A DNA stretch of 64,000 nt from an uncultured virus (IMG/VR IMGVR_UViG_3300010370_000033) (lineage: Duplodnaviria > Heunggongvirae > Uroviricota > Caudoviricetes), in the IMG/VR virus record IMGVR_UViG_3300010370_000033; one strand, written 5' to 3'. The translations under genes were made by a program, and so were the position numbers. This document shows, in pieces, positions 1,090-57,141 of the stretch. The notes below the pieces were generated by a model that made no database searches, was not told the origin of the DNA, and saw only the letters and a program-made list of their open reading frames with translations. Numbering within the stretch: the stretch's first letter is position 1; every line of letters starts with the position of its first letter.

Positions 1090-2346
1090 TCAATATATCT
1101 CTCTCCATCTTAAGGAAACGCCAACACTTGTTGAATCCGAACCGATATTTGTCACACGGACTGAAAAAATCTCTGAATCTGTAGAATCAAAATTTTGAGA
1201 TAGATAATTCTTTTTTGATGTTGGTCCAGATTGAATCTGTGCAGTATTTGCTGAGGGTTTTTGTTGATTTTGACTTTCTCCTGCAGCATATCCTCCCATA
1301 AAGTCCTCAAAAGGACCTACTGCAATCGTAGTTGCATTTTGATTATATTCTGCGACGGATTCGTCATTTTCAGAAATCCAAGTTCCTGTTGTTGAAAATC
1401 CTGAAGTTGATTTAAGTTTAACTACTTCATACTTTACGTTTGCTCCATTAGTGAAAACCGTAATATCTTCTAATTTTATAGTTGCTCGGTTTTGATATCC
1501 CTTGAATGAATTTTTTAATCTAATTGCAATAATTGGAACTGTAGAGCCGATTCCAACGGAACGAAGAGGTGTGGTATGTGAAAATTCTCTTCCCGCTTCT
1601 GTATATCCACCTTCACTCATCACGGAAGAGCAAATTTGAATAAATGAACCTCCAGCACCAACTTGAGTTCCACTATTGCTAATTTCACATCTCACTGGAA
1701 GATTTGGATTAGACATATAGACGGTAGTCAGATTATTTGAATTATAAAATTCGTGTGCTACGATATTTTTTCCATCCATACTAAATCCACATCTGACTCT
1801 TCCTACTCCCAACCATTCAAAGTCAGTAAAAAATAATTGAGTTTTTGTGATATCTAAAATGTAACCAGAAGGTCCATTTCCATCTAATTTATCTTTATTC
1901 CATTGAGATTGAGGTATTCTTCTTTCTGAAGTGCCAATTCCTGCAGTCGTGTATGAGCGAATTACAAAACTCAGAGTTCCATTTGACGCCTGTTCAAAGA
2001 AAATTCCATCTTTATCGTCAAAATATCCAGTTCTTTTAGTTACATTTTGTTGAGAATTACCGAAATTAAAAGTTGAGTAAATCAATTGAGATTTACCTGG
2101 CATATAGTGATGATATCTTTTTGTCTGGTGAATACAATATCCATTCGTACTAATTCCAGAACTTAAAACTGCTGCTGCTTGATTTCTTTCAAAAGTTACT
2201 GATGCTCCTACACCAGAAGTCACGTCAATAAAATCTGGATCAATAGAATAAAGATGTTTGTAATCACCTAAAGTAAATGGTTCTGATACTCTTAAACGAT
2301 TGAATGCATCAGATTCTGGTTTAAATGGTTCATATAAAAAAGACAT
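1090..2346 (-). CDS. Probable virion structural protein (beta-rich, DAFxRLRVSEP N-terminus)
   Basis: 418 aa ORF overlapping the upstream gene's stop; late module. Confidence 0.55.
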   Translation of the reverse strand: MSFLYEPFKPESDAFNRLRVSEPFTLGDYKHLYSIDPDFIDVTSGVGASVTFERNQAAAVLSSGISTNGYCIHQTKRYHHYMPGKSQLIYSTFNFGNSQQNVTKRTGYFDDKDGIFFEQASNGTLSFVIRSYTTAGIGTSERRIPQSQWNKDKLDGNGPSGYILDITKTQLFFTDFEWLGVGRVRCGFSMDGKNIVAHEFYNSNNLTTVYMSNPNLPVRCEISNSGTQVGAGGSFIQICSSVMSEGGYTEAGREFSHTTPLRSVGIGSTVPIIAIRLKNSFKGYQNRATIKLEDITVFTNGANVKYEVVKLKSTSGFSTTGTWISENDESVAEYNQNATTIAVGPFEDFMGGYAAGESQNQQKPSANTAQIQSGPTSKKNYLSQNFDSTDSEIFSVRVTNIGSDSTSVGVSLRWREIY

Positions 2347-3026
2347 TAGATTACCCTCCAGGAATTACCTTTCCAAATAAAAGTCAAACTTCCATAATCA
2401 TATGCAAGAATTGCTCTATCTCTACCATCAATTAAATCACTTCCCGAAGGTAGAACTGTAATATACCGATTTGTTCCTTTTGATGCCTCTCCAAGCTCAT
2501 CTTTAATCACAAAAATTTTTCCTTCCCTATCTGCATAAGGTAAAGTAATTGTGACTGCTCCAGCATATCTTACCCCAATATAGTAATCTTGTGGAGTAAC
2601 TGTGTATGATTCTGAAGTTACGGACGTAATTGGAACGTCCATAAATGTCAAATTTGTCTCACCTCCACCACCAAGAGTAGAGAGTTGTTGTTGTATTCTA
2701 GCTAAAAATATTTTATATTGTTTTTGCAAATCATCAAGAGTTGCAAAATTTTGATTTAATGGTGTAATCGGATCTGTTTGAATTTTTTTATCCGATGGTT
2801 CTGACAAAAGACCCAAAGATTTTTCAATTAAAGTTGATTCTTGAATATTCTCAACAGATTTATTTTTTTGAATCTTTCTTTTTTTCTTCGGATTTTTTTG
2901 CTCTTGAAGTGGCTTTAAAAATAGATCATCAAAGGAACCTGAGATTAGGCTCTCAAGTTCCTTTTGATTTTTTTCCTTTTCTTCATTTACAAAAGAAAAG
3001 AAGTCATTTAAATCGTATTGTTTCAC
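2346..3026 (-). CDS. Hypothetical late protein (charged N-half, fibre-like beta C-half after GGGGE)
   Basis: 226 aa ORF, GTG start. Confidence 0.5.
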   Translation of the reverse strand: MKQYDLNDFFSFVNEEKEKNQKELESLISGSFDDLFLKPLQEQKNPKKKRKIQKNKSVENIQESTLIEKSLGLLSEPSDKKIQTDPITPLNQNFATLDDLQKQYKIFLARIQQQLSTLGGGGETNLTFMDVPITSVTSESYTVTPQDYYIGVRYAGAVTITLPYADREGKIFVIKDELGEASKGTNRYITVLPSGSDLIDGRDRAILAYDYGSLTFIWKGNSWRVI

Positions 3027-3030
3027 AGAA

Positions 3031-3195
3031 TCATTCTTCTGAATTGAACATTACATTTGCTACAACTGGCCTTAGTTCATCAATTCTTTCTGCTGACTTT
3101 GCATAAAGAATATCTTTAATTGTATCACTAATCTCAGAAGGAGATTCATCAGAAGCAATCATATCCATTAGGTCATCCATTTGCATTTCTTCCAT
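3031..3195 (-). CDS. Small acidic protein following g20 (possible prohead core protein; not in ORF track)
   Basis: MEEMQMDDLMDMIASDESPSEISDTIKDILYAKSAERIDELRPVVANVMFNSEE; TATAAATA at 3208-3215. Confidence 0.75.
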   Translation of the reverse strand: MEEMQMDDLMDMIASDESPSEISDTIKDILYAKSAERIDELRPVVANVMFNSEE

Positions 3196-3207
3196 TTGAA
3201 TTTTATC

Positions 3208-3215
3208 TATTTATA
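3208..3215 (-). promoter_or_regulatory. T4-type late promoter TATAAATA
   Basis: Exact consensus 12 nt upstream of ATG at 3195. (A/C)TAAATA variants precede other late genes at 1084, 6926, 9794, 11058, 16517, 22233, 29074, 43356 (minus) and 43693, 47509 (plus). Confidence 0.85.
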
Positions 3216-4474
3216 TGTGCTCTACAAAACTCAAAGTATTTAGTAAACTAAATACTTATGTAGTTTAACTCATTCTAAATAAGAATGTATAGAGCATTTC
3301 GTTATAGATTTTATCCTTCGCCTTCTCAAGAACTTCTTTTAAAGAAAACTCTTGGTTGTAGTAGGTTTGTCTATAATCATTTTCTTGCTCTACGTATTCG
3401 TGAATGGACTACAAATCAAAAATCAGTTTCTTATAATGAAACTTCTTCAATCTTAACTCAATTAAAGAAAGAAGAAAGCACAAGTTGGTTAAATGAAGTT
3501 TCAGCAGTTGCCCTTCAACAATCTCTTCAAAACCTTCAAGAAGCATATAATAACTTCTTTAGGGGATTGAAGAAAAAACAAAAAGTTGGATTTCCTAGAT
3601 TCAAAAAGAAAAGTAACAGAAACTCTATTACTTTAACAAAAGCAGGATTCTCTTATAAAAATGGAGAAGTCTTTATTGCTAAATCTAAAAAACCTCTTTC
3701 TATCCGTTGGAGTAGGGAATTACCAAATGAGAACATTAGTTCAGTTAAGATGTCCTTAACTCCTTCGGGTAAATGGTTTATTTCCATTCTAGTGAATGAT
3801 GAAAATGACTATACTTTACCTCTTTGTAATAAAGTATTGGGAGTTGATTTGGGTATTGAAACCTTTGCTACATTATCTACTGGTGAAAAAGTTAAAATGC
3901 CTGATTTAAAACCTCATTATGAAAAACTCAAGAAACTTCAAAAGAAACATTCTAAAAGGAAAAATGGTTCTAAAAACAAAAATAAGGCAAGAATAAAAGT
4001 CGCAAGACAACACGAAAAGATTACCAACATCAGAACAGATTTCCATCATAAACTATCTACAAGAATTACCAACGAAAACCAAGTTATAGTTCTTGAAGAT
4101 TTAAATGTTTCTGGAATGGTAAAAAATAGAAAACTTGCTCGTGCTATATCTCAACAGGGATGGTCCCAATTTATATCGTTCCTAAAATACAAGACAACTA
4201 TGTATGGTAGAGAACTTTTACAAGTTGATAGATTCTATCCTTCAAGTAAAACTTGTAGTTCTTGTGGAACTATACAGTCTTCACTCCTATTAAACATAAG
4301 AGAATGGACCTGTGATTCTTGTGGGACTACTCACGACCGAGATATAAATGCAGCAAAGAATTTAATGGCGTTAGGAACTAGCGTTACTGCCTTTGGAGGA
4401 GATGTAGGACCTACTTGTAGGCAAACTCCGGTGAAGAAGGAATCCGCGACATCTTTAGTGTCGCGGTAGTTCAA
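3215..4474 (+). mobile_element. Non-autonomous IS200/IS605-family (IS1341-like) element, tnpB only
   Basis: tnpB opposite to all neighbours; right-end hairpin CCGCGACA-7nt-TGTCGCGG (4444-4466) followed by TCAA (4471-4474); left boundary inferred after TTTAT; no tnpA. Confidence 0.75.
3285..4469 (+). CDS. tnpB: RNA-guided endonuclease TnpB
   Basis: N-terminal YRFYP/GCSRFVYN helix region; RuvC motifs GVDLG, VLEDL, DRDINAA all intact; zinc ribbon CSSC...CDSC. Confidence 0.95.
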   Translation: MYRAFRYRFYPSPSQELLLKKTLGCSRFVYNHFLALRIREWTTNQKSVSYNETSSILTQLKKEESTSWLNEVSAVALQQSLQNLQEAYNNFFRGLKKKQKVGFPRFKKKSNRNSITLTKAGFSYKNGEVFIAKSKKPLSIRWSRELPNENISSVKMSLTPSGKWFISILVNDENDYTLPLCNKVLGVDLGIETFATLSTGEKVKMPDLKPHYEKLKKLQKKHSKRKNGSKNKNKARIKVARQHEKITNIRTDFHHKLSTRITNENQVIVLEDLNVSGMVKNRKLARAISQQGWSQFISFLKYKTTMYGRELLQVDRFYPSSKTCSSCGTIQSSLLLNIREWTCDSCGTTHDRDINAAKNLMALGTSVTAFGGDVGPTCRQTPVKKESATSLVSR

Positions 4475-4494
4475 TTATCAGATTTCTCCGCCTT
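4330..4494 (+). ncRNA. Predicted TnpB omega/reRNA (5' end approximate) with guide at about 4475-4494
   Basis: Known IS605 architecture: scaffold overlaps the tnpB 3' end and right end, guide is the flank after TCAA. Confidence 0.55.
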
Positions 4495-6898
4495 TGGGCA
4501 TTTTAACCGTAGAAGTGTCAAGTTCTGCTGCCTTTGCTGATGGTTTTGTAAGTCCAGCATTGTTTGCACCCTCTAAGTCTGGTTCATTCACTGGTTGTCC
4601 CAAATCCATTTGAGAAGTTCCTTGTGGCAATGGCATTCCAGTTTCTGGATCAATTGGTGCATTTGGATCTGGAATTTCTCCATTTTCAATTTCCTTTTTG
4701 ATAATTGCATCTTGTTCCAGAATCTCTTGGTCAGTTTGACGAAGAATTTTACGACGAACATAATCTTTGGAGAAATATTTACCTACATAAGGTTCTGCTA
4801 CTTGAACCATATTTAATCGTTCGTTAAGTAGTTCAGAATCTTTTAGTTCAGCAAAATGATTATCATAAAGAAAATCATATTGAATATGTTCGCTCATAAT
4901 ATCCCAATCTTCTGGTGTCACAATGTTCTTCAGAAGAAGCTGAGTTCTTAACATATCGTGAAACATATAAGAAAATCTTTTTCTTAAACGAGCAACGAAT
5001 TTGCTGAACTTTACTTCGTCACGTAGAATCTCAGATGAACGACCAAGATTGAATCCACCTTCACCTTCCATTCTTGATGGAGGAACATTTAGTGACCGAT
5101 AAAGTTTTTTCTTAAAATATTCAATATCTGTGATTTCTCCAAGATTTTGTCCTCCTGGAAGTGTTGTAATTTCGGTTCCCCTTCCACCTTCTCTACGAGG
5201 AAGCCAGAAGTCTTCTAGCATGCTCATGAATTTTTTCGTATCCGTAATTTCGCCTGTTGAGGCATCATATGTTAATTTGTTACGATATCTCATCATAACA
5301 TCACGAAGATATTGTTCGGCTTTAATTTTAGGAAGATTTCCTACATCAATATAGAAAATTCTTCTTTCTGGAGCCCTTGAGTTATGAACGATAATACCAT
5401 TTGCTACGAAATTATGTTTTTCGTGTGCGACTTCAATATCATAAACTTTTTCAATATCAACCTCCTCAACTGATTCAATTTTTTCAAATTTGGGTAACTT
5501 ATACTCACCAATATAAAGTTGATAATCTTCATTTTGTTTGTTGATGTTACTTGAAGCAACTCCTATAGAAGTAATAATTTCTTTAATATCTTCAATAAAT
5601 TTTTTATTATCTGATGAAATTTTCCAAGAGAATCCGTCAATAGTATCCATTTGAATACCATAAGAATCTAAGACTTTACCAATATAATTTAATTTTACTT
5701 CATTACTTGATACAAAAAGATTTTCTGGAATTTCTTGTCTATTATTAAACTCTATAAAAATTTTATTAATGTCATTTTCTTCCTGACTAATATAAGTTAA
5801 ACAATGCCTCTTAGGTTCAAGGTCTTTAATCGGAACATACTTTACATCATTTGTCGTAGAATCATAAACTAAAATTGGATGAGTATCAGTTCCTACTACA
5901 CTATGATGCTTTGACTTTACTTTATATGTCTGCTTAACACCAGTTAACCATTTATTTGTAACTTGAGTTTCAACTAATTTATCAACTCTATTATCATAAG
6001 AATAAACAGTATCTCCTACTTGAATATCTTTGATGTAAGAATACCCTTTATCAGTTTTAACTCTGGTGTCTCCAATTAAACACAGACGATAAATTACCAA
6101 AGAATCCTCAATCATTCTGAGTTGATTCAGAGATTTAATTGCTTTATGCAAATAAGATAAAGTTGAACCCTTATTTCTATCAATCAATCCAGAGTGACAA
6201 TAAGTAATTGCATCTTTAGTAAATTTAATTCCTCCAGTTCCACCAAGAGATGATGGATTTGTGGTGGGGAAAGACATTTTTGGATTATAAACATAATATT
6301 CCTCAATTTTTGGAAATTCATATTCCATCGGATTAGAACTTCCCACGTTCGCCAATCTTTTTTGGCGGCGAGATTCATCAGTTTCTTTTTCTTGCCTCAC
6401 ATATCTCATTTTCATTGCATCAATATATCTCAATTCTTGAATGCCAAGATTGGGATTTTTAAAATCAATGACTTTATGATAATAAAGTCTTCCATCAATA
6501 TACCAGTTACGATATATTTCGTGAGACTTCTTATCAAAATCTAAAAGTTCTAAAATATACTTAAATTCTTCTCTAATTTTCCTTTTAATTCCATCACTCG
6601 CATTTAAATTTGATAGCTCAATTGCAATTGGACTATCATTCGTATCACTTACAATTGCTTCATTTACAATATCTTCAATGGCACTATCACATTCTGGATG
6701 AAGTGCCATTTCACGATATCTTTTAATTAAGTCAAATTCAGTTCTATAAACACCTTCAATATCTACATAAGATCCAAAGAATCCACTCGTTAGATAAAAA
6801 TCACTCCCGTCCGCATTGTTAGGCGGAACGGGAGATACTACTGTGGGATTTACCTTTTCATTTGAATCTTCAATAGAAAAACCAAAAAGTCTTGCCAT
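4478..6898 (-). CDS. g20: Portal vertex protein gp20 containing an intein
   Basis: MARLFGFSI, YREMALHPECD, LRMIEDSLVIYR, APERRIFYIDVGNLPK, EDFWLPRREGGRGTEITTLPGG; 572 aa after intein removal. Confidence 0.97.
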   Translation of the reverse strand: MARLFGFSIEDSNEKVNPTVVSPVPPNNADGSDFYLTSGFFGSYVDIEGVYRTEFDLIKRYREMALHPECDSAIEDIVNEAIVSDTNDSPIAIELSNLNASDGIKRKIREEFKYILELLDFDKKSHEIYRNWYIDGRLYYHKVIDFKNPNLGIQELRYIDAMKMRYVRQEKETDESRRQKRLANVGSSNPMEYEFPKIEEYYVYNPKMSFPTTNPSSLGGTGGIKFTKDAITYCHSGLIDRNKGSTLSYLHKAIKSLNQLRMIEDSLVIYRLCLIGDTRVKTDKGYSYIKDIQVGDTVYSYDNRVDKLVETQVTNKWLTGVKQTYKVKSKHHSVVGTDTHPILVYDSTTNDVKYVPIKDLEPKRHCLTYISQEENDINKIFIEFNNRQEIPENLFVSSNEVKLNYIGKVLDSYGIQMDTIDGFSWKISSDNKKFIEDIKEIITSIGVASSNINKQNEDYQLYIGEYKLPKFEKIESVEEVDIEKVYDIEVAHEKHNFVANGIIVHNSRAPERRIFYIDVGNLPKIKAEQYLRDVMMRYRNKLTYDASTGEITDTKKFMSMLEDFWLPRREGGRGTEITTLPGGQNLGEITDIEYFKKKLYRSLNVPPSRMEGEGGFNLGRSSEILRDEVKFSKFVARLRKRFSYMFHDMLRTQLLLKNIVTPEDWDIMSEHIQYDFLYDNHFAELKDSELLNERLNMVQVAEPYVGKYFSKDYVRRKILRQTDQEILEQDAIIKKEIENGEIPDPNAPIDPETGMPLPQGTSQMDLGQPVNEPDLEGANNAGLTKPSAKAAELDTSTVKMPKGGEI
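5381..6082 (-). mobile_element. Intein (234 aa) in gp20 with decayed endonuclease remnant
   Basis: VIYRL|CLIGDT...TDTHPIL...VYDIEV...NFVANGIIVHN|SRAPE. Confidence 0.93.
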
Positions 6899-6931: not shown

Positions 6932-7546
6932 TCAGGTGGGCTGAGTGTTCCTATTATCGGTCACATCAAGAGGTCTCCAGTATTGAACTTGGAATTCTGC
7001 TGTAAATTCTTCAATAATATCTGCAGTATCATAAGAAAGATCAATTGGTGCTACGTTTGTTGGAAAAATATCAACAAATTCGTATGTGGCGATTACTCCA
7101 TTTGCTGATGCAGTATCAGTAAGGCCACCTCCAGTGGTTTGTCCTGGAGTGGTAGCACTTCTTCTAAGTTGCTTTACTTTAGCATTTTGCATATATTGAG
7201 CTGGATTGGTCAAACCGCTTGCATCTGCATATTGACCAATCACTTGAGACCATCTTTCCATTGTTCTACGAATGGAAAAATCTTCATCATTGATTACAGT
7301 AATAGTCCAAGGATCATAAGTCCTTTCTCCAGCAACTTTGAAGATTCTTCCACGAAAAGGAACGTCCACACTCGCAATGTTTGAACCCGGAAGAGCTGCA
7401 GCCTTGCAAAGAATGGAAAAATTAGTGTCACTATAACCAGTTGCTTTTTGAACTGCAGTTGGAATTGTTAATTCCACTTGGAATAAATTTGCACGAGCAC
7501 CACCACCCTTTAGAGCAGCTTTGAAGTCTTGAATTGAATGAGCCAT
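6932..7546 (-). CDS. g19: Tail tube protein gp19
   Basis: GGARANLF, CKAAALP, FRGRIFKVAGER, WTITVINDEDF, IEEFT; synteny. Confidence 0.95.
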   Translation of the reverse strand: MAHSIQDFKAALKGGGARANLFQVELTIPTAVQKATGYSDTNFSILCKAAALPGSNIASVDVPFRGRIFKVAGERTYDPWTITVINDEDFSIRRTMERWSQVIGQYADASGLTNPAQYMQNAKVKQLRRSATTPGQTTGGGLTDTASANGVIATYEFVDIFPTNVAPIDLSYDTADIIEEFTAEFQVQYWRPLDVTDNRNTQPT

Positions 7547-7577: not shown

Positions 7578-9758
7578 TCAAACAGTTCCAGCCACTTCTT
7601 CAAAACTTACTCCAGTACGAGTAGCAACGAAAGTAAGAGTAATATAATTAATAGATTTGGTTGGCTTTAGATAAATATCAGCTCTGAACTCATTATTATC
7701 AATTACATCAGGGGTATTATTTGTAGTATCGCAAACTACTAGAAACTCATAAAGACCTCTTTTTGCTTGAACATCACGAAGATATGGTTCAACAACATTT
7801 TTAAAGTTTGCACGAGTGAGTTCATCATTGAGTTCAAATAGTTGAGCATTTGCAGTTCTTTGAAGTGCTTGCTCAATTGTAAGAAATAGTCTGCGAACGT
7901 TAATTCTATCAAATGCAGATGAATAACCTAGAGCAGTTTTATCACCAAAAAGAACGGTCCCAACGCCAGGCTGTGTTACAATTGCATTAATTCTCTGAGG
8001 ATAAAGTTGATCTCTTTGAGACTTGCTGGGATTATATGCTAGTTTGATCGCATTATTTAAAATTCCACGTTGTTGACCCGCTGGTGAGAACCAAGGATAT
8101 GCAACAATGTTTGTGCGACACATCAGTCCAGCAATATCGGCATTACAAGGAATATAGACAAATTTATTGTTAAATCTATCATAAGTATATTTGTATCCAC
8201 TATCAAAGACTGCGTAAGATGAGGACGCAAGTGGGCTGAAGAAGCTAATGATATTATTTGTTTGAGTTGTAGTATTTGTAATATTTACTACATCAGAACG
8301 ATGGGGAGAAATAGTTGCAACACAATCTTTACGAAGTTCAGCAATTGCAATTAGACTATTTGCCTTTGCTTGAGAATCCTCCTTACTATCCATTCCTGGA
8401 CCCATAATCAAATAATCAACAGCAATTGAGTCCTTATTTGAGAATAGATCATAAGAGGACACAATGTCAGCAAGAGTTGCTTTAAGGCCATTTGAAACAG
8501 AATAATCAACGCCACCAGTTAGAGTATAAGTGACATTTCCGATTGCACTAAAAGCAGTTCCTTGAGCATTAGATCCCCAAAGACCTTGACCACTTGTATA
8601 AGGAGTAAATGCAGTTGAAAATCCAATAGCTCTTGGAGCAGTTCCCCAATAAGAATCTAAAGCACTTGATGGATTTGAACCAGAAAATACTTGAGAAGAA
8701 AAATCTGCAAGATACTGCTTATACCAGATTTTTTGAGGTGAGTTTACTGCAGAAACAGAATCTAGAGCTTTTGAAAGACCTAAATGCTTTTCAAGAATTG
8801 AGCCTTGAACACCACTGATTTTTCCTAAGTCGTCAACGACTACAACGTGAAGTGCATCACCTTTTCCGTTTCTTTCAAGAGAATAACGATTTGTTACTGG
8901 TTTTGGAGCAATAGATTTCCAGTAAATGGTAGAATTTGTTAGACTTAAAGTCTGTTCATTATACCAATCTTTCACTGAAGAAACTGATGCTGAACCCGTT
9001 GAAATGCCAGAATTGTTTACAAATGTTAGAGAATTACCACTAGCATAAGAGGATCCAACGGAACCTTCGGCATATGTAATTGGAGTTTCAGTTCCAGTAG
9101 AAGAAACTCTAGAAACAATCTTTACAGAAATTGTGCTATTTGAATTTGTAGAGTCAGTAGAAACTCCAGTAATAATTCCTTTTAAGTAACCATTGAATAC
9201 TGCAGTTGTTCCTGAACCCGCAAGAACGGCTGAAATACCAGTAGTTACTCCATATCCGATTTGAGCACCAACAGCACCTAAATCGGAAGTACTAATTCCA
9301 ATAATTTGATCAGCTAAATCATCAATAACGCAGACCTTTAATCCATTTGCCCAAGAACCTGGATTCTTAGCGGCAAAAGTAAAGGTGGATGAAGAAGCCC
9401 AATTATTCAAATAATCATCATAATTTTTAATTTTTGCTGATGATGTAGAAGCAATTCCAACACCAGCATTTGCGTTATTCAGTGTAGAACCATCGGTTCT
9501 TACAACTTTCATTACGCCTCCATATGAAAGATAGGATGAAGCACTCATCCAATATTCATATTGTGAATCGGTTTGAGATGGTCTACCGAAAACGTTGATT
9601 AAGTCTTGTTCTGTTGCAATATCAATTGGGAAATCTACTGGACCAATTGGAAATGGACCCGCAATTCCTCCAATATTATCTAAAACATTATCAGCTCTTC
9701 CTACACTTAAATCAACCTCTCTGACTAATACACCAGGAGATAATTGAGGAGTCGCCAT
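7578..9758 (-). CDS. g18: Tail sheath protein gp18
   Basis: SPGVLVREVDL, PWFSPAGQQRG, FDRINVRRLF, SINYITLTFVATRTGVSF. Confidence 0.97.
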   Translation of the reverse strand: MATPQLSPGVLVREVDLSVGRADNVLDNIGGIAGPFPIGPVDFPIDIATEQDLINVFGRPSQTDSQYEYWMSASSYLSYGGVMKVVRTDGSTLNNANAGVGIASTSSAKIKNYDDYLNNWASSSTFTFAAKNPGSWANGLKVCVIDDLADQIIGISTSDLGAVGAQIGYGVTTGISAVLAGSGTTAVFNGYLKGIITGVSTDSTNSNSTISVKIVSRVSSTGTETPITYAEGSVGSSYASGNSLTFVNNSGISTGSASVSSVKDWYNEQTLSLTNSTIYWKSIAPKPVTNRYSLERNGKGDALHVVVVDDLGKISGVQGSILEKHLGLSKALDSVSAVNSPQKIWYKQYLADFSSQVFSGSNPSSALDSYWGTAPRAIGFSTAFTPYTSGQGLWGSNAQGTAFSAIGNVTYTLTGGVDYSVSNGLKATLADIVSSYDLFSNKDSIAVDYLIMGPGMDSKEDSQAKANSLIAIAELRKDCVATISPHRSDVVNITNTTTQTNNIISFFSPLASSSYAVFDSGYKYTYDRFNNKFVYIPCNADIAGLMCRTNIVAYPWFSPAGQQRGILNNAIKLAYNPSKSQRDQLYPQRINAIVTQPGVGTVLFGDKTALGYSSAFDRINVRRLFLTIEQALQRTANAQLFELNDELTRANFKNVVEPYLRDVQAKRGLYEFLVVCDTTNNTPDVIDNNEFRADIYLKPTKSINYITLTFVATRTGVSFEEVAGTV

Positions 9759-9822: not shown

Positions 9823-11025
9823 TTAGTAGTTCCACATATATGAAAATTCAGCTTGACTATCGCCGTATTCATCTAGATACCAACGATCTCCATCTACATC
9901 AGTAAAAGTTTTATCTTCTAATCCATCCATAATGAATCCAAATGGAGCCATATCTTGTTCAATTTGATTCTTTTGTTCTTCGTATAATCTTTTTCTTACG
10001 TCTTGTTCTGTAAGTTCTTTGAAATAATCTTGTGCTACTAGCCAGGCATATAACACGAGGCAGATAGCCAAGTCATCATTACATCCTTCTTCAGCTTCAA
10101 ATGAATTATGTTTTTGAATAAAAGTTGTTAATTCTGAAATAATATCATAATCATTTAAAAATAACTTATCTTCTTCAATTAAAGTCTTAAGATTCAAACA
10201 TCCGATTTTCTTTACAGTTTTAGACATTTTCACACCCAATTGGGTGTGTTTTCCTGAGAATCCTTGTCCGACAATTTGACCAGCTCTTCCTCTCATTGAA
10301 CACATCAAAAGATTTGTGTATTCTAAGTCATAATGAATAATTGATGCTACTTGATCACCTACATCATTGACTTCACAAAAAATAAAAGCATTATTATAGT
10401 TTTTTGCAATATCTACAATAATACTTGGATATATCATTGGTTTAATCTGATTATTGCGATATTTTGCTACAACTTTATGAGGAAATGACGTAATATCAAT
10501 CACAACAAAAGCAGAATAATCTTTTTCTACACCTCTAGCTACATCAACAGTTATTAGATAATCGTGATTGTCTTGAGCCTCCTCAAAAACATCTAAATTC
10601 TTACTTTTTATTAATGGTGGTTCATACACAAGAGATTTAAGTTTTGGTGCAGAAATTAATGTGTCAATAGAACCCAAAAATTCACAATTATGCGAAAGAA
10701 TATTATTTGAATAATATATGTGGTCTTTTCCAGAATTTATTATATCAAATAATTCAATTCTTTTTTTAATAATTTTAAATTTTTTTAAAAAACACCCACC
10801 ATTTTTTCCATAAACTTCTGTATATTTGTCTAAGTCTTTTGCTTTTATTATTCCTTCTATCGTCATTAATGGGTGTTCTAATGAACATTTAAGAATTTCG
10901 CCATTTGTAAATTCTAAACGAATGTATTCATCTCTTACAATTTTATTTACTCCATAAAAGTTCTCAAATCCATAGGGAGTTTCAATTTTTATGTTGGAAT
11001 TATTTTTCAATATGTTGTCTGACAT
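9823..11025 (-). CDS. g17: Terminase large subunit gp17, C-terminal fragment (113 aa C-intein + nuclease domain)
   Basis: ...NNILSHN|CEFLGS...VDVARG...DYSAF...NDDL. Confidence 0.93.
   Translation of the reverse strand: MSDNILKNNSNIKIETPYGFENFYGVNKIVRDEYIRLEFTNGEILKCSLEHPLMTIEGIIKAKDLDKYTEVYGKNGGCFLKKFKIIKKRIELFDIINSGKDHIYYSNNILSHNCEFLGSIDTLISAPKLKSLVYEPPLIKSKNLDVFEEAQDNHDYLITVDVARGVEKDYSAFVVIDITSFPHKVVAKYRNNQIKPMIYPSIIVDIAKNYNNAFIFCEVNDVGDQVASIIHYDLEYTNLLMCSMRGRAGQIVGQGFSGKHTQLGVKMSKTVKKIGCLNLKTLIEEDKLFLNDYDIISELTTFIQKHNSFEAEEGCNDDLAICLVLYAWLVAQDYFKELTEQDVRKRLYEEQKNQIEQDMAPFGFIMDGLEDKTFTDVDGDRWYLDEYGDSQAEFSYMWNY
10687..11025 (-). mobile_element. C-fragment of atypically split TerL intein
   Basis: IKIETPYGF, CSLEHPL (block B), LFDII (block F), SHN|C (block G). 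Confidence 0.9.
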
Positions 11026-11060
11026 TTTTCATTTAGAGATTGGTATATTCAAGTTGTTAT

Positions 11061-12929
11061 TTAGTTGGATAATAACTCATATAATTTTCCCATTTCAATA
11101 TCTACTATTTTATCATCAATTTTAACTTTAATCAAGGTCTCTGCGGCAACACTTTCGTGCTCTGCCCTGAACTGAGTTTCACTTGTGTTGGCTATAGTTT
11201 GTTTTTTCCATTCTTCATCTCTTCCCGGAACTTGAGACCAATGAACTTCTGTTGTTACAAATTCATTTCTACCTCTTTCGGCATCGTGCCACATTTGATA
11301 GAATTTGTTGAGTCCGCGTGGCGTGCTCACAATTATAACTTTTGTTGATTTTCCAGAAGAAATTGTTGGATACACGGATGCAAAGAATTCATCTGCAATA
11401 TGGTTCGGTACGAATGCGAACTCATCAAGAAAAATAATATTAAAGGTCATACCTCTAACGGCAGAAGCCGAAGTAGATGCGGCTAAAATTTTAGATCCGT
11501 TTTCAAGTTCTAATGATCCTTTATTCCAAGAAATGATCCCCTGTTGCATCCATTTTGGAAGATTTTCATAGGCTAATTGCAATCTACTTAATATTTCTCT
11601 AGAAGTAGAAGCCTTATTACCAAGAATACCAATAGTTACATTATCATTAAAAACAATATAATGTAATAGATATGAAATTACAGTCGTTGTGTTATGTGTT
11701 GGTATGAAAGTTTTTCCACACAAAAATAAATGATCTTCACTATCTACTTGAATACACGCAACAGGGACACTTTCAACTTTTTCTATTTTTTGTATATAAA
11801 TTCTTTTATTTTGTGGCCTTCCATTTCCATTAAAATTGATTAAATTTACTTTTCTAGGAAGATTAAATAATTTTTCTTTACTCGCAAACCTAATTGTATA
11901 ATACCAACAATTATTAATTAACTTTCTAGAAACTCTAGATTTTATTCCCAATGAAGAAAGTAGTTCTACAACTTGGGTAATAAATTCGTAATTTTTTTGA
12001 TAAAATTCAAATGATTGCGTTTTTGTTATTGAACCGTCAGTATCCATTAAACCACGAAGTAATTCTAATCTTTGTTCTATAGATGAACGAAGATATATTT
12101 CAGGAATATGTTTATTTTTTAATAAATTATTTTCTTTTAATTTTTTTCTTAAATTTTTGCACTTAAATCTTATACAATTTTTATCTTCCCTTTCGTATTC
12201 TACATCAATTCTAGTTTTATAATATTCATAATCATTTTTATGGGAAATTATTCTTCCATCAGAGGAGTAACCATCACCCAACCAAACTCCAAGAAGATAA
12301 GGATCAATTGGGAGATTCTTGTTTTCTCCTATAAAAGGTTTTGTATACTCAATGTATATTGGTCCAACTACACCTTTTCCTCTTTTATTATTTGATTTTT
12401 TTGAATATTTTAAATAGATTTCATTTGTTGTTATAACTTTTTTTCCAGTTCTCCAATCTTTAGCATTCACTTCCCAAAGATGATCGGCATCTGCAATAAT
12501 TTCCTCTCCATTATCAAAATATATTTTATAGCACTGATGATTAAACATTGTTTCCGTTTTAAAAGTAACAGAAACTTCATTTCCATCTGGAGATAATATC
12601 TTATCACCAACTTTAATATCACCAATTGTAGTCCAACCAGTTGCAGTTGGAATTGGCGTATCTAATGCTAAGGCTTTTCCCACTTGTCTACTGCACTTTA
12701 CGATATTAAATCTGTGTCTATGAAAATTACTAATTAAATTTTCTTGAAACGGCCACATTTTAAAATTAACGAGACCTTGATCTACGTTAACAATTTTAAC
12801 ATAATTTCTAGTGAAATATACGGGATCATCCTTACATTTTACAAATTCTAGAATTTGCTCTTCTGTAAATTGAATAGGAGTATTGGCTTTTTTAAGATTT
12901 GGGTTTCCTAAATATACACTATCAGACAT
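11061..12929 (-). CDS. g17: Terminase large subunit gp17, N-terminal ATPase fragment (internal intein + 30 aa N-intein)
   Basis: YLGNPNLK, Walker A SRQVGK|T, Walker B IIFLDEFAF, VSTP. Confidence 0.95.
   Translation of the reverse strand: MSDSVYLGNPNLKKANTPIQFTEEQILEFVKCKDDPVYFTRNYVKIVNVDQGLVNFKMWPFQENLISNFHRHRFNIVKCSRQVGKALALDTPIPTATGWTTIGDIKVGDKILSPDGNEVSVTFKTETMFNHQCYKIYFDNGEEIIADADHLWEVNAKDWRTGKKVITTNEIYLKYSKKSNNKRGKGVVGPIYIEYTKPFIGENKNLPIDPYLLGVWLGDGYSSDGRIISHKNDYEYYKTRIDVEYEREDKNCIRFKCKNLRKKLKENNLLKNKHIPEIYLRSSIEQRLELLRGLMDTDGSITKTQSFEFYQKNYEFITQVVELLSSLGIKSRVSRKLINNCWYYTIRFASKEKLFNLPRKVNLINFNGNGRPQNKRIYIQKIEKVESVPVACIQVDSEDHLFLCGKTFIPTHNTTTVISYLLHYIVFNDNVTIGILGNKASTSREILSRLQLAYENLPKWMQQGIISWNKGSLELENGSKILAASTSASAVRGMTFNIIFLDEFAFVPNHIADEFFASVYPTISSGKSTKVIIVSTPRGLNKFYQMWHDAERGRNEFVTTEVHWSQVPGRDEEWKKQTIANTSETQFRAEHESVAAETLIKVKIDDKIVDIEMGKLYELLSN
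11064..11153 (-). mobile_element. N-fragment (30 aa) of atypically split TerL intein
   Basis: QFRAEHE|SVAAETLIKV...IEMGKLYELLSN*; block A-like, placed exactly where the extein continues as CEFLGS. Confidence 0.85.
11691..12674 (-). mobile_element. Class 3 intein (328 aa) with LAGLIDADG endonuclease in the gp17 Walker A motif
   Basis: Starts with Ala (ALALDTPIPT); WCT signature DHLW / VACIQV / PTHN|T; LLGVWLGDG and LRGLMDTDG. Confidence 0.92.
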
Positions 12930-17919: not shown

Positions 17920-18471
17920 TTAAACTCTTCTAAATGTATATCCTCTATGACTATTTTGTCCACTTTTATTCAAACATTTTGTAATAGCAGAACTATCACC
18001 ATTAATATATTTTGCACATTCTACTATTGAATTAAACTCAAGACTTAACTCGTTTATAATTACACGACAAGTAGGAAGATTATTTCCTTTTCCTTTTTTT
18101 GTCTTTGAAATTTTTTCTCCTCTTTTTTTTCTCTCTTCTGGTGTAATATTATCCCAAAATTTTTGTAATCCTTTTATTCTATTAATTTGCCCCGGCTTAG
18201 CTTTTGGTGGAGAATCTCCACCATCTGTTTTATTATAAAGTACTCCAGTTCCCAAGTCCTTTCTACCAAAAACTGCAATCATATATTTTTCGTGTTTGAA
18301 TGCCTCTTCCTCTGTTAAATTATTTTTTAAAATAATTATTCTATTCTTTGGTGGGACATATATTCCGTGTGTTTTATGATTTGATATTTCATACGCACGA
18401 TTTCCCTTTCCCTTTCCAATATAATAAGGTTTTTTGTTTTTTCTTAAGTATGCGTAAGTGTAGTAAATCAT
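17920..18471 (-). CDS. Free-standing GIY-YIG homing endonuclease with NUMOD-type C-terminus
   Basis: YYTYAY...PYYIGKG..R, NKTDGG, FNSIVECAKYI; wedged between g13 and g14. Confidence 0.8.
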   Translation of the reverse strand: MIYYTYAYLRKNKKPYYIGKGKGNRAYEISNHKTHGIYVPPKNRIIILKNNLTEEEAFKHEKYMIAVFGRKDLGTGVLYNKTDGGDSPPKAKPGQINRIKGLQKFWDNITPEERKKRGEKISKTKKGKGNNLPTCRVIINELSLEFNSIVECAKYINGDSSAITKCLNKSGQNSHRGYTFRRV

Positions 18472-45300: not shown

Positions 45301-46467
45301 TTAGATTACCTCCTGAGATTCTTTTCTAACGATTTTTACGATGTCCTTATGAGATTTTATTTCTTTATTAATTAAGAAATATAGAGAAGAACTAGAATAT
45401 CCTCTTTCTCTGCACATCTTATTTAAGTTTTTAATCACTTCAGTTCTTCCGTCATTATATGTGATCTCGTATTCCTTTTCTTTATAGCTAGTTTCCGGAT
45501 TTCCTCCTTTGATTGAGTTTTCACTAAGAGACATCCATTGTAAATTTGAAGGATGATTATTTAGTTTATTCCAATCAATATGATCTACGGTATCGTATTT
45601 TAATGGATTGGGATTTTCAATCAATTGTTTTGCAACAAGACGATGAACTTTTTGTATGATTTTCTTAGTTCCGGGAAGTTTCATATTTAAATGATAATAA
45701 CCAGTCTTATGAAGATGTTGAGAAATTTCTCTGGTAAATTCTTCTGAAAGAATCATTTCGTCTTTCACTCTTTCCCATTTACTAAAGATTCTTACTTTTT
45801 CGGATGCATCGTCTTTCTTATATACAATATAATAACCAGGCCAATCAGTTAATTCTACACAATCATATTCAGAAACATCAATTTTAGATTTAGGCTTTCT
45901 TCTTGTTCTACCTGTTTTAGGTCTTTCAATTTCTGTAAATGAAATAATTCCTTTATACTCACTAATTTCTCCTTTTCTTAGGCGATACAAAGATCTTTCT
46001 GTTAAGCTATTCTTTTCAAGAAACTCTAGAAATCCATTGATGATTTCCTTTCTTCCGTCCTTATATACGGCTTCAAATTGTTTGACTCCTCCTTTTGCAC
46101 GATTAATGTTCGCAGAAAAAGTTCTATACTCAGAATCCGATGCCCATTTTAGATTTGATGGATGGCAGTTATAAATGTTTCCGTCTTTATGAATCACTCT
46201 TGAATAATTTTTTGTATTTCTTAAGAGATAAGATGCAACTAGAGTATCTAAGTAGAGTCTTTGCTTTTTACCCATTGTTGCAATCGTCACATAAAGACGG
46301 TCACGATCATCAGCAGATTTCAAAGGTCTTGAATATGATTCATCAATCACGGCTGGTGTTTTTCCAGTTTTTCTCCAATTACTATGAATCGTAACGGGTA
46401 TTGATGAATCATATTCGTCATAAGAAAAATAGTATCCTTCGTGTTCTTTGATTCTGATGGTTTTCAT
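45301..46467 (-). CDS. Free-standing HNH homing endonuclease with two tandem HNH modules
   Basis: VIHKDGNIYNCHPSNLKW and VHRLVA...VDHIDWNKLNNHPSNLQW. Confidence 0.85.
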   Translation of the reverse strand: MKTIRIKEHEGYYFSYDEYDSSIPVTIHSNWRKTGKTPAVIDESYSRPLKSADDRDRLYVTIATMGKKQRLYLDTLVASYLLRNTKNYSRVIHKDGNIYNCHPSNLKWASDSEYRTFSANINRAKGGVKQFEAVYKDGRKEIINGFLEFLEKNSLTERSLYRLRKGEISEYKGIISFTEIERPKTGRTRRKPKSKIDVSEYDCVELTDWPGYYIVYKKDDASEKVRIFSKWERVKDEMILSEEFTREISQHLHKTGYYHLNMKLPGTKKIIQKVHRLVAKQLIENPNPLKYDTVDHIDWNKLNNHPSNLQWMSLSENSIKGGNPETSYKEKEYEITYNDGRTEVIKNLNKMCRERGYSSSSLYFLINKEIKSHKDIVKIVRKESQEVI

Positions 46468-56651: not shown

Positions 56652-56684
56652 AAAAGAGAGCATGTTTTAGTCGCTCTCTTTTTT
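56650..56684. terminator. Bidirectional intrinsic terminator between convergent genes
   Basis: A-run-GAGAGC...GCTCTC-T-run. Confidence 0.8.
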
Positions 56685-57141
56685 ATTGCATTTTTGATTT
56701 GAAGTATGAGATAATCAGATTTTCATCAATATTAGGATTCTTTCTCCCTGAGTTGTTGAGTATTGTTGTATGCCAGGGACTATTGTCTTCTGTTGCTAAT
56801 CTTGAAAGTTGGGTATCAGAATAAGAACCATAGATTTCTTGAATTCTCAATAGAAGTGGAATTCTAGGATCTTGTTCTGAAATTGTAGGAGGTGATCTTA
56901 GAAGTTCTGAAAGTGGGAATTTGATTGAACTGCTTCCATATTCTTTAGCAGCATTGTAGATAGTAGGAAATATTGGTCCCCAAGGAAATGCCGATACAAA
57001 CTCATCAGTGAGTGGTTGATTGTATAAGGCAAGGCACCAACAATGAGAAAAATAAGTGAGTCTCTGAAGTTTGATGACTGTTGAATTTGGATTTTTAGCA
57101 AGAAACCAATTTGCAACTGCTAAAGATGAGAGATATTTCAT
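56683..57141 (-). CDS. Panacea (DUF4065/SocA-like) antitoxin-domain protein
   Basis: VANWFL, KLQRLTYF, L....AFPWGP...IY, YG.YS..QLS......PW. Confidence 0.8.
   Translation of the reverse strand: MKYLSSLAVANWFLAKNPNSTVIKLQRLTYFSHCWCLALYNQPLTDEFVSAFPWGPIFPTIYNAAKEYGSSSIKFPLSELLRSPPTISEQDPRIPLLLRIQEIYGSYSDTQLSRLATEDNSPWHTTILNNSGRKNPNIDENLIISYFKSKMQ

Follow-up and report, generated by a model that had tools for sequence, protein, structure and literature searches.

How does a tnpB gene come to sit among the late genes of a T4-type phage, and does its product influence its own inheritance? We address this question for the window, a 64,000-nt stretch of DNA (34% G+C) from an uncultured virus of the Caudoviricetes (IMG/VR IMGVR_UViG_3300010370_000033). 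The first 47 kb of the window form a T4-type late module on the minus strand, and tnpB is the sole plus-strand gene within it. An earlier note on this DNA had proposed a candidate RNA-guided homing endonuclease; what it said about the sequence proved correct throughout, and its interpretation is partly supported. The best explanation, which we regard as moderately probable, is that tnpB belongs to a phage-adapted IS1341-type element that is immobile for TnpA at this locus and is propagated by homing, or gene drive, through TnpB.

The identity and anatomy of the element are highly secure: window positions 3215-4474 constitute a tnpB-only IS200/IS605 element (IS1341-type, OMEGA). Its orientation is antisense to the late operon, and on either side of it are the portal gene g20 and a late gene for a 54-aa protein. 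The relatives that define its ends come from two scans that detect close relatives only, one of viral contigs, with a single relative (L001, 89% protein identity), and one of metagenome contigs, with 19 relatives (L082-L100, 76-100% TnpB identity). L082 is identical to the window and shares both flanks at 100%; the other relatives lie in unrelated flanks, giving about 15 distinct insertion sites altogether. On the right, homology among 17 loci ends at window base 4474. The termini read TAGTTCAA in 15 of these loci and TAGTTCA in the other two, with unrelated flank beyond. On the left, the usual order is TTTAT, four variable bases, GTTCCGTAAAA, a hairpin nearly identical to the right-end hairpin, a spacer, ACTAAATACTTATGTAG, about 20 nt and the start codon. 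TTTAT occupies one alignment column in all nine distinct left flanks with a recognisable left-end start. A conserved target-adjacent motif (TAM) thus stands directly 5' of the left end, and the right end has a subterminal hairpin and a terminal transposon-encoded motif (TEM), as in the IS200/IS605 family.

A filled and empty pair at another site agrees with these limits. The filled site of L091 equals the empty loci L144-L147 plus exactly one element, inserted between TTTAT and the bases that follow TTCAA. In the empty loci, TTTAT stands directly ahead of the flank that matches the guide, and L091 has no junction repeat. As TTCAA ends at 4474, the guide is predicted to start at 4475 and to correspond to the antisense portal end. 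Positions 4475-4494 are the reverse complement of the last portal codons and the stop codons TGA (4478-4480) and TAA, and are unique within the window with up to two mismatches allowed; their first four bases (TTAT, 4475-4478) copy the last four of the TAM. The earlier note had described a right-end hairpin followed by TCAA and 20 nt antisense to the end of g20, which the sequence bears out, and the relatives and the L091 pair agree with its element ends and its guide start. Its candidate TAM, TTTAT within TATTTATA and hence within the neighbour's TATAAATA, is backed by related copies and empty sites. Two other placements of the left end were considered. A boundary near 3247, drawn from the comparison with L001 only, was dropped after the full left end of the family had been aligned, and a left end starting with TTAT, with the preceding 5 nt as TAM, is unlikely, as those 5-mers are not conserved across copies.

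Several relatives show irregular ends. L088 and L089 have a common left flank and element and differ from the first base past TTCAA, the right side of L089 carrying an HNH fragment and then a terminase on the other strand; either the DNA was rearranged at the TEM or the assembly is chimeric at the repeat. The right flank of L090 (1311-1330) starts with CTAAATACTT, a motif internal to the left end of the element, followed by an HNH endonuclease gene. In L094 (1046-2352) and L095, tnpB is about 125 nt longer because it contains a second copy of the right-end/omega-RNA terminus, complete with TAGTTCAA at its end.

The tnpB ORF (open reading frame) scores above the cut-offs of Pfam HTH_OrfB_IS605, OrfB_IS605 and Cas12f1-like_TNB and matches PHROG 506 (E 2e-128). 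Its product aligns at full length with the ISDra2 TnpB structures 8exa/8h1j (E 3e-80, residues 3-391). It has the D (GVDLG), E (LEDLN) and D (HDRDINA) motifs as well as both CxxC pairs, all conserved in each of the 16 related copies examined, which confirms the intact RuvC triad reported before and rules out a TldR-like, nuclease-dead regulator. All 16 copies have an open tnpB with catalytic motifs, including three lineages that lack the left-end hairpin. The ratio of nonsynonymous to synonymous divergence (dN/dS) between the window and each of ten relatives is 0.08-0.16 (codons 1-345). Because the changes private to the window lineage comprise 15 nonsynonymous and 24 synonymous ones, selection on its tnpB does not look relaxed. 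Judged from its sequence, TnpB appears intact, under purifying selection and functional.

The 3' end of tnpB seems to carry a covarying omega-RNA-like fold. The right-end hairpin (4444-4466) has an 8-bp stem and a 7-nt loop (-17.2 kcal/mol, z -6.4) and is followed by TAG-TTCAA up to 4474. With 14 right ends as input, RNAalifold predicts 37 pairs; compensatory double changes are seen at 11, among them pairs of the terminal hairpin and of an inner stem. Synonymous divergence is 0.62-0.96 in codons 1-345 and drops to 0.17-0.55 in the last ~49 codons, as expected if an omega-RNA scaffold overlaps the gene there. An Rfam scan of 2500-5500 gave no family match; a sub-threshold hit to caiA was taken as chance.

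The left end of the window copy departs from the family pattern. Its GCTCTACAAAAC agrees with the start of the L083 left end in 10 of 12 positions, and the subterminal hairpin present in most relatives (for example L085, L088 and L093) is absent: the region is ~24 nt shorter and has an unrelated AT-rich inverted repeat instead. A lineage-specific segment of ~14 nt has replaced the hairpin and pairs with the conserved CTAAATACTT, giving a perfect hairpin at 3234-3257 with a 10-bp stem and a 4-nt loop (-8.8 kcal/mol, z -3.4, 0 of 200 shuffles as good). This hairpin, with CTAAATA on both strands, had been noticed earlier and is real; it is, however, not the transposase-binding hairpin of the left end, which it replaces. 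L087 and L094/L095 also lack the left-end hairpin. The window copy therefore looks like a defective member of a regular IS200/IS605 family. Because the hairpin is lost, TnpA would not act on this end, and by the rules known for IS608 the copy can probably no longer be excised or transposed by TnpA. The reported absence of tnpA holds as well: no Y1 transposase (PF01797) was found among the 66 window ORFs scanned or in the 72-kb L001 record, and the 57 ORFs flanking other copies gave no transposase PHROG match. In L087 (1300-1440), comparison with L166 shows a composite left end, with ~26 nt of foreign DNA, a second TTTAT and a hairpin-less left-end piece; it also holds a 12-nt string identical to the late-promoter region of the empty site.

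Late-promoter motifs are found both in the element and at its target. The T4 late-promoter consensus at -13 to -6 is TATAAATA, and CTAAATA is a variant documented in the T4-like phage Aeh1 (PMC1524935). In the window, ATAAATA stands 17-42 nt ahead of eight late-gene starts and CTAAATA 29-39 nt ahead of three genes (the terminase C-terminal part, a 692-aa gene and gp15). The left end of the element has CTAAATA at 3248 (+), 3243 (-) and 3275 (+). The motif at 3248-3254, 37 nt before the tnpB ATG, lies within ACTAAATACTTATGTAG, which is kept in 15 of 18 aligned copies, and is likely the late promoter of tnpB; late transcription of tnpB and the omega RNA can reasonably be inferred from it. The inverted copy at 3243 (-) faces the 54-aa gene, and similar outward motifs occur in L087 and L096. 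The copy at 3275 occurs in the window only, relatives having CCACATAA at this position, and ends 3 nt short of the ATG; being too close to the start codon, it is regarded as chance. The proposed wiring to late promoters is thus retained for the conserved upstream motif and given up for the motif before the ATG. At the junction itself, seven of the eight bases of the neighbour's TATAAATA are flank, and its first T comes from the element end.

The earlier note had suggested a search for empty alleles, and such alleles of the g20 junction exist. We compared contigs of four sequencing runs (X1, X3, X4 and X5) with window 2300-5600; metagenome contigs can be chimeric at repeats. The filled allele is found with zero mismatches in X1, whose contigs cover 2300-3315 and 4377-4880 and thus both junctions, and in X4, where a contig (4377-4688) spans the right junction. 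The empty allele appears in X3 and in X5, which belong to two other studies, with a single contig per run; in these contigs 3197 is joined to 4475 through twelve letters, TGTCTTATCTAT. Relative to the window, their left flanks show 1-6 differences in 898 bases and their right flanks 5-7 in 141-214. The empty allele reads ...TCTATTTAT and then directly CAGATTTC..., and the window ...TCTATTTAT, the element and TTATCAGATTTC.... The element is thus polymorphic at this site, being present in X1, X4 and L082 and absent from X3 and X5; both empty alleles have the 20-nt target without change. In X3, window-type pieces of the element (0-2 differences) occur at a depth of ~6 and the empty contig at a depth of 21, with no junction contig listed; both alleles may, though the indication is weak, coexist in this sample. 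Viral contigs gave no match to an exact 25-mer from the portal end, and the empty sites of L001 and L085 could not be reconstructed, the intergenic DNA of their relatives being too diverged or the neighbours different.

From these features we infer the following course of transcription, ribonucleoprotein (RNP) formation, cleavage and copying. tnpB and the omega RNA would be transcribed late from the CTAAATA of the left end, and the right-end RNA would carry the antisense portal end as its guide. The RNP would spare its own genome because TTCAA, instead of TTTAT, precedes the target there. It would cut co-infecting genomes of the same phage type that lack the element and have TTTAT with the portal-end target, and recombinational repair from the element-bearing genome would copy the element in. 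Such homing, or gene drive, would be independent of TnpA and non-restorative. It is plausible for the family; for the window copy we put a homing or drive function at slightly short of even. A more far-reaching version is possible and less probable: an OMEGA lineage specialised on T4-like phages, with its own late promoter, a TnpA-independent RNA-guided drive among co-infecting phages, a TAM that is the reverse complement of the late-promoter core, and TCTAT empty alleles that resist the drive.

The requirements of homing are present at two other sites of the family. The empty loci of the L083/L086 site (L104) and of the L091 site (L144-L147) have TTTAT and a 20/20 match to the element flank.

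Several observations weigh against homing as the explanation of the window copy. The earlier note had counted an absent TAM at the empty g20 junction against its own proposal; in both empty alleles, TCTAT and not TTTAT precedes the target, and TTTAT lies 4 nt out of register. The filled allele has TTCAA at this place. For GstTnpB2, which uses a TTTAT TAM, single-bp TAM changes are reported to ablate cleavage (10.1101/2023.03.14.532601). By analogy with that protein, the sampled empty alleles are probably poor substrates, which would also explain why empty and filled alleles coexist. The evidence from the runs consists of contigs and not reads, in which rare variants are dropped. Also, TTAT is present on both sides of the filled element, unlike a canonical IS605 insertion, and for this reason the true guide register is uncertain. 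TnpB genes are moreover common in phages (612 of 50,697 records) and need have no phage function.

A further point against homing comes from the pair L083 and L086. Their elements, including TTTAT and the TTAT after TTCAA, show one difference in ~1295 positions, within flanks of related phages that are 81-94% identical; a near-identical element in diverged flanks implies that its sequence recently moved or was homogenised. The borders are sharp, the last difference on the left being 9 bases before the left end and the first on the right the fifth base past TTCAA, and co-conversion of the flank is not seen. TnpB cleaves 15-21 nt from the TAM. Homing between these two phages is unsupported, as break repair would have copied the first 15-20 flank bases of the donor. 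The pair is better explained by precise re-insertion into a tolerated site, or by gene conversion templated by copies elsewhere, than by TnpB homing. It is the one site at which the same element lies in two diverged phages, and it weakens the proposed spread in the manner of T4 free-standing endonucleases.

The junction repeat is itself a puzzle. At the window site TTAT brackets the element, and the empty alleles have a single TTAT there. The second, independent site, that of L083/L086, reads CTTTATTTAT, element, TTATGAACC, and its four closest empty loci read CTTTATTTATGAACC. In a third pair, L087 and L166, TTAG follows TTCAA, and the rearranged left end contains the target's CTATTTAG. IS200/IS605 elements are described as making no duplications (PMC13565253, PMC3201880). 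The mobile unit could have included four extra bases through an alternative TnpA boundary, as reported for ISGst2 (10.1101/2023.03.14.532601); because the neighbour-joining tree does not group the window with L083/L086, this would require two events. A genuine duplication by some route and slippage in a (TTTA)n tract are possible as well. Each of the three antisense insertions occupies the reverse complement of a TAAATA(G/A) late-promoter motif, and this motif overlaps the stop codon of the gene upstream. On the more far-reaching reading, a TAM that matches the late-promoter core on the opposite strand would direct antisense insertions to stop/late-promoter junctions, both of which would stay intact. 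Through the four-base repeat the stop codon and the promoter motif come to lie on opposite sides of the element, and selection for rare viable insertions is therefore a plausible filter. In most of the related loci L002-L081, the portal stop codon lies inside the late-promoter motif of the next gene (for example ...ATATAAATAA and ...TGATAAATAA); this overlap is the type of site used by the antisense insertions of the element.

Of the other explanations, the one that survives best is that the element was inserted once by a TnpA acting in trans, lost its left-end hairpin and has since been carried vertically, with TnpB and the omega RNA having no effect on inheritance. We consider this possible, though on the unlikely side. 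It would account for the missing hairpin, for empty alleles that lack a canonical TAM in register and possibly offer nothing to cut, and for the sharp borders without co-conversion at L083/L086. It also agrees with the canonical transposition of the family, seen in the L091 pair and the ~15 insertion sites, and with the frequency of TnpB genes in phage records. It does not readily explain why tnpB has stayed intact in all 16 copies, including the three hairpin-less lineages, why the dN/dS values are low and the window branch shows its 15:24 ratio, or why the omega-RNA fold is maintained by compensatory changes. The conserved late-promoter motif of the left end also points to expression in the phage.

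An alternative in which the RNP serves as a weapon between phages is improbable. The RNP would cut the portal end of competitors and lower their yield, marker exclusion being incidental and spread not selected. The target is indeed the end of an essential, conserved late gene, 15 of its first 16 bases are kept in distant relatives (L030-type junctions), and free-standing phage homing endonucleases are described as killing competitors (PMC13565253). However, GTTAT or TCTAT precedes the target in the relatives and empty alleles seen, and the guide is whatever flanks the insertion, as in every member of the family, with no sign that the portal was the selected target. That a repeated metagenomic element was misjoined into a phage contig is very improbable. 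In favour of it, these samples contain the element in several copies, L082 and L084 being from a single metagenome; X1 also has loose ends whose left end is of another type, and only one flank is common to L088 and L089. Against it, the mismatch-free junction contigs of X1 and X4 are independent and L082 reproduces both flanks at 100%.

The distribution of the clade bears on whether the element is a recent arrival from a host. The informative flanks of other copies are all phage-like, with genes for endonuclease V, 2-oxoglutarate (2OG) oxygenase, dCMP deaminase, primase, thioredoxin, terminase, tail fibre and HNH proteins. A pattern scan of one genome per species in 185,579 species gave no close copy and two relatives at 46% identity. 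A protein search gave 88 clusters at >=72% identity, all environmental, and then a gap to <=57%. No isolate-phage copy above 60% identity was found in the 50,697-record collection, and none of 80 more distant portal loci carries the element. As far as sampled, the clade appears restricted to phage DNA. The earlier note had set a recent multi-copy host insertion sequence with conventional ends against its proposal. Conventional IS605 ends and many sites are indeed found and indicate a transposon lineage rather than a bespoke homing gene; a host insertion sequence it is not, with none close in the species genomes scanned.

By its parts, the element is an ordinary member of IS200/IS605; its logic is closest to that of ISGst2 and its sequence to ISDra2 TnpB. 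ISGst2 of Geobacillus stearothermophilus, with GstTnpB2, has the TAM TTTAT and the TEM TTCAC (10.1101/2023.03.14.532601). The TAM is the same as here, and in both elements TAM and TEM disagree at positions 3 and 5 (TEM TTCAC versus TTCAA). ISGst2 also has subterminal hairpins and a guide from the right flank, and GstTnpB2 cuts the empty donor joint. ISGst2 is, however, bacterial, chromosomal and served by TnpA, whereas the window element is phage-borne, tnpB-only, without a left-end hairpin and equipped with a late-promoter motif. ISDra2 TnpB (8exa, 8bf8, 8h1j) is the closest natural relative with a solved structure and shares its order of domains and its catalytic and zinc motifs with the window protein, but its TAM is TTGAT (PMC13565253), and ISDra2 has its own tnpA and resides in a bacterial chromosome. 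In IS608 of Helicobacter pylori (PMC3201880), the right cleavage site TCAA likewise lies just 3' of the right hairpin, the external target is 5' of the left hairpin and no duplication is expected. It differs in its target (TTAC), in its spacings of 19 and 10 nt (here ~15 and 4 nt to the motif) and in having tnpA, and its rules do not predict the TTAT on both sides of the window junction. The IS1341 group (PMC13565253) also has TnpB only; the window lineage is, as sampled, restricted to phage DNA.

Among homing systems, the free-standing Seg and Mob endonucleases of T-even phages (PMC13565253) are similar in the placement of a nuclease gene between conserved late genes, in presence/absence polymorphism and in the proposed spread by break repair during co-infection. 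They are protein-guided GIY-YIG or HNH enzymes, whereas TnpB is an RNA-guided RuvC nuclease; they tell self by the sequence of nearby genes, whereas here the insertion separates TAM and target; and they leave co-conversion tracts, of which none is seen at L083/L086. In a plasmid gene drive with an IS605 TnpB (PMC11870625), reprogramming by the insertion site likewise leads to cleavage of element-free copies; that system is experimental and in E. coli, whereas the one considered here would operate in a virulent-type phage. The tnpB of the freshwater cyanophage A-1(L) is induced in infection, and homing is mentioned as a possibility (10.64898/2026.02.14.705889); it is identical to host copies of its insertion sequence, whereas the clade of the window has no close copy in the genomes searched. 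TnpB is reported to restore or drive IS605 elements (10.1101/2023.03.14.532601). Homing by TnpB has been demonstrated in bacterial chromosomes and, in preprint form, on plasmids (PMC11870625); for phages it is treated as a theoretical case in a review (PMC13565253) and speculated on for one cyanophage (10.64898/2026.02.14.705889). We found no demonstration of TnpB homing in phages in the literature, subscription-only papers being outside this search.

New here is a clade found only in T4-like phage DNA, which has its own late-promoter motif and whose TAM reads as the late-promoter core on the opposite strand. Also new are filled and empty alleles occurring naturally at three or four sites, and the repeated loss of the transposase-binding end with the nuclease conserved. 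The locus and its relatives matter because co-occurring phages naturally carry defined sites with and without the element, the TAM is of known type and the window copy is apparently unable to transpose. Because the window copy cannot, on this evidence, transpose, any bias in its inheritance would be attributable to TnpB alone, and RNA-guided homing in virulent phages is directly testable at this locus. Two puzzles are raised by it, the four-base junction repeat and the sharp-edged transfer of an element between diverged phages.

Table 1. Positions of the element, its parts and the neighbouring late genes in the window.
Feature	Positions	Strand	Description or basis
Late-promoter-type motif	3208-3215	-	TATTTATA, on the minus strand TATAAATA; 12 nt before the ATG of the 54-aa gene
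TAM TTTAT	3210..3214	+	Abuts left end; 9/9 left flanks and L091 filled/empty pair
Degenerate left end	3215..3284	+	Left-end alignment, fold, motif positions
Left end, variable bases	3215-3218		
Left end, GCTCTACAAAAC	3219-3230		
Left end, inverted repeat	3234-3257		
Left end, ACTAAATACTTATGTAG	3247-3263		
tnpB	3285..4469	+	394 aa; RuvC D-E-D and zinc-finger cysteines intact
Omega-RNA scaffold-like region	4320..4474	+	Overlaps tnpB 3' end; 5' limit approximate
TEM TTCAA	4470..4474	+	Right boundary; homology end in 17 loci and L091 pair
Predicted guide template/protospacer	4475..4494	+	Antisense of the portal's last codons and stops
54-aa late gene	3031..3195	-	Directly downstream of portal in relatives; PHROG 14164/2088, function unknown
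Portal gene g20	4478..6898	-	806 aa, with intein; Portal_T4 E 7e-183
Tube gene	6932-7546	-	Late module
Sheath gene	7578-9758	-	Late module
Other late-module genes			gp25-, gp6- and gp8-like baseplate, neck, gp15, terminase

The surroundings of the element are those of an aquatic T4-like phage. The sequencing runs that contain this stretch are labelled freshwater or aquatic metagenomes, and the closest named phages are Synechococcus myoviruses, with 73-76% DNA identity over parts of the portal only. A homologue of the 54-aa gene stands right after the portal stop in 75 of 80 related portal loci.

Other insertions or selfish genes may be present in the window. In the portal protein, Pfam Intein_splicing matches residues 288-506, and the Portal_T4 match is split in two. 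The large terminase occupies two ORFs (window 9823-12929, minus strand): that at 11061-12929 has LAGLIDADG_3 (residues 285-339) ahead of Terminase_6N, and that at 9823-11025 has Terminase_6C. This arrangement may reflect an intein, an intron or a split gene. A small ORF between neck genes (17920-18471, minus strand) has weak NUMOD and GIY-YIG matches, and two further minus-strand ORFs encode an HNH_3 protein (45301-46467) and a SocA/Panacea antitoxin-domain protein (56683-57141). By their domain matches, these three ORFs would be selfish or defence-type genes.

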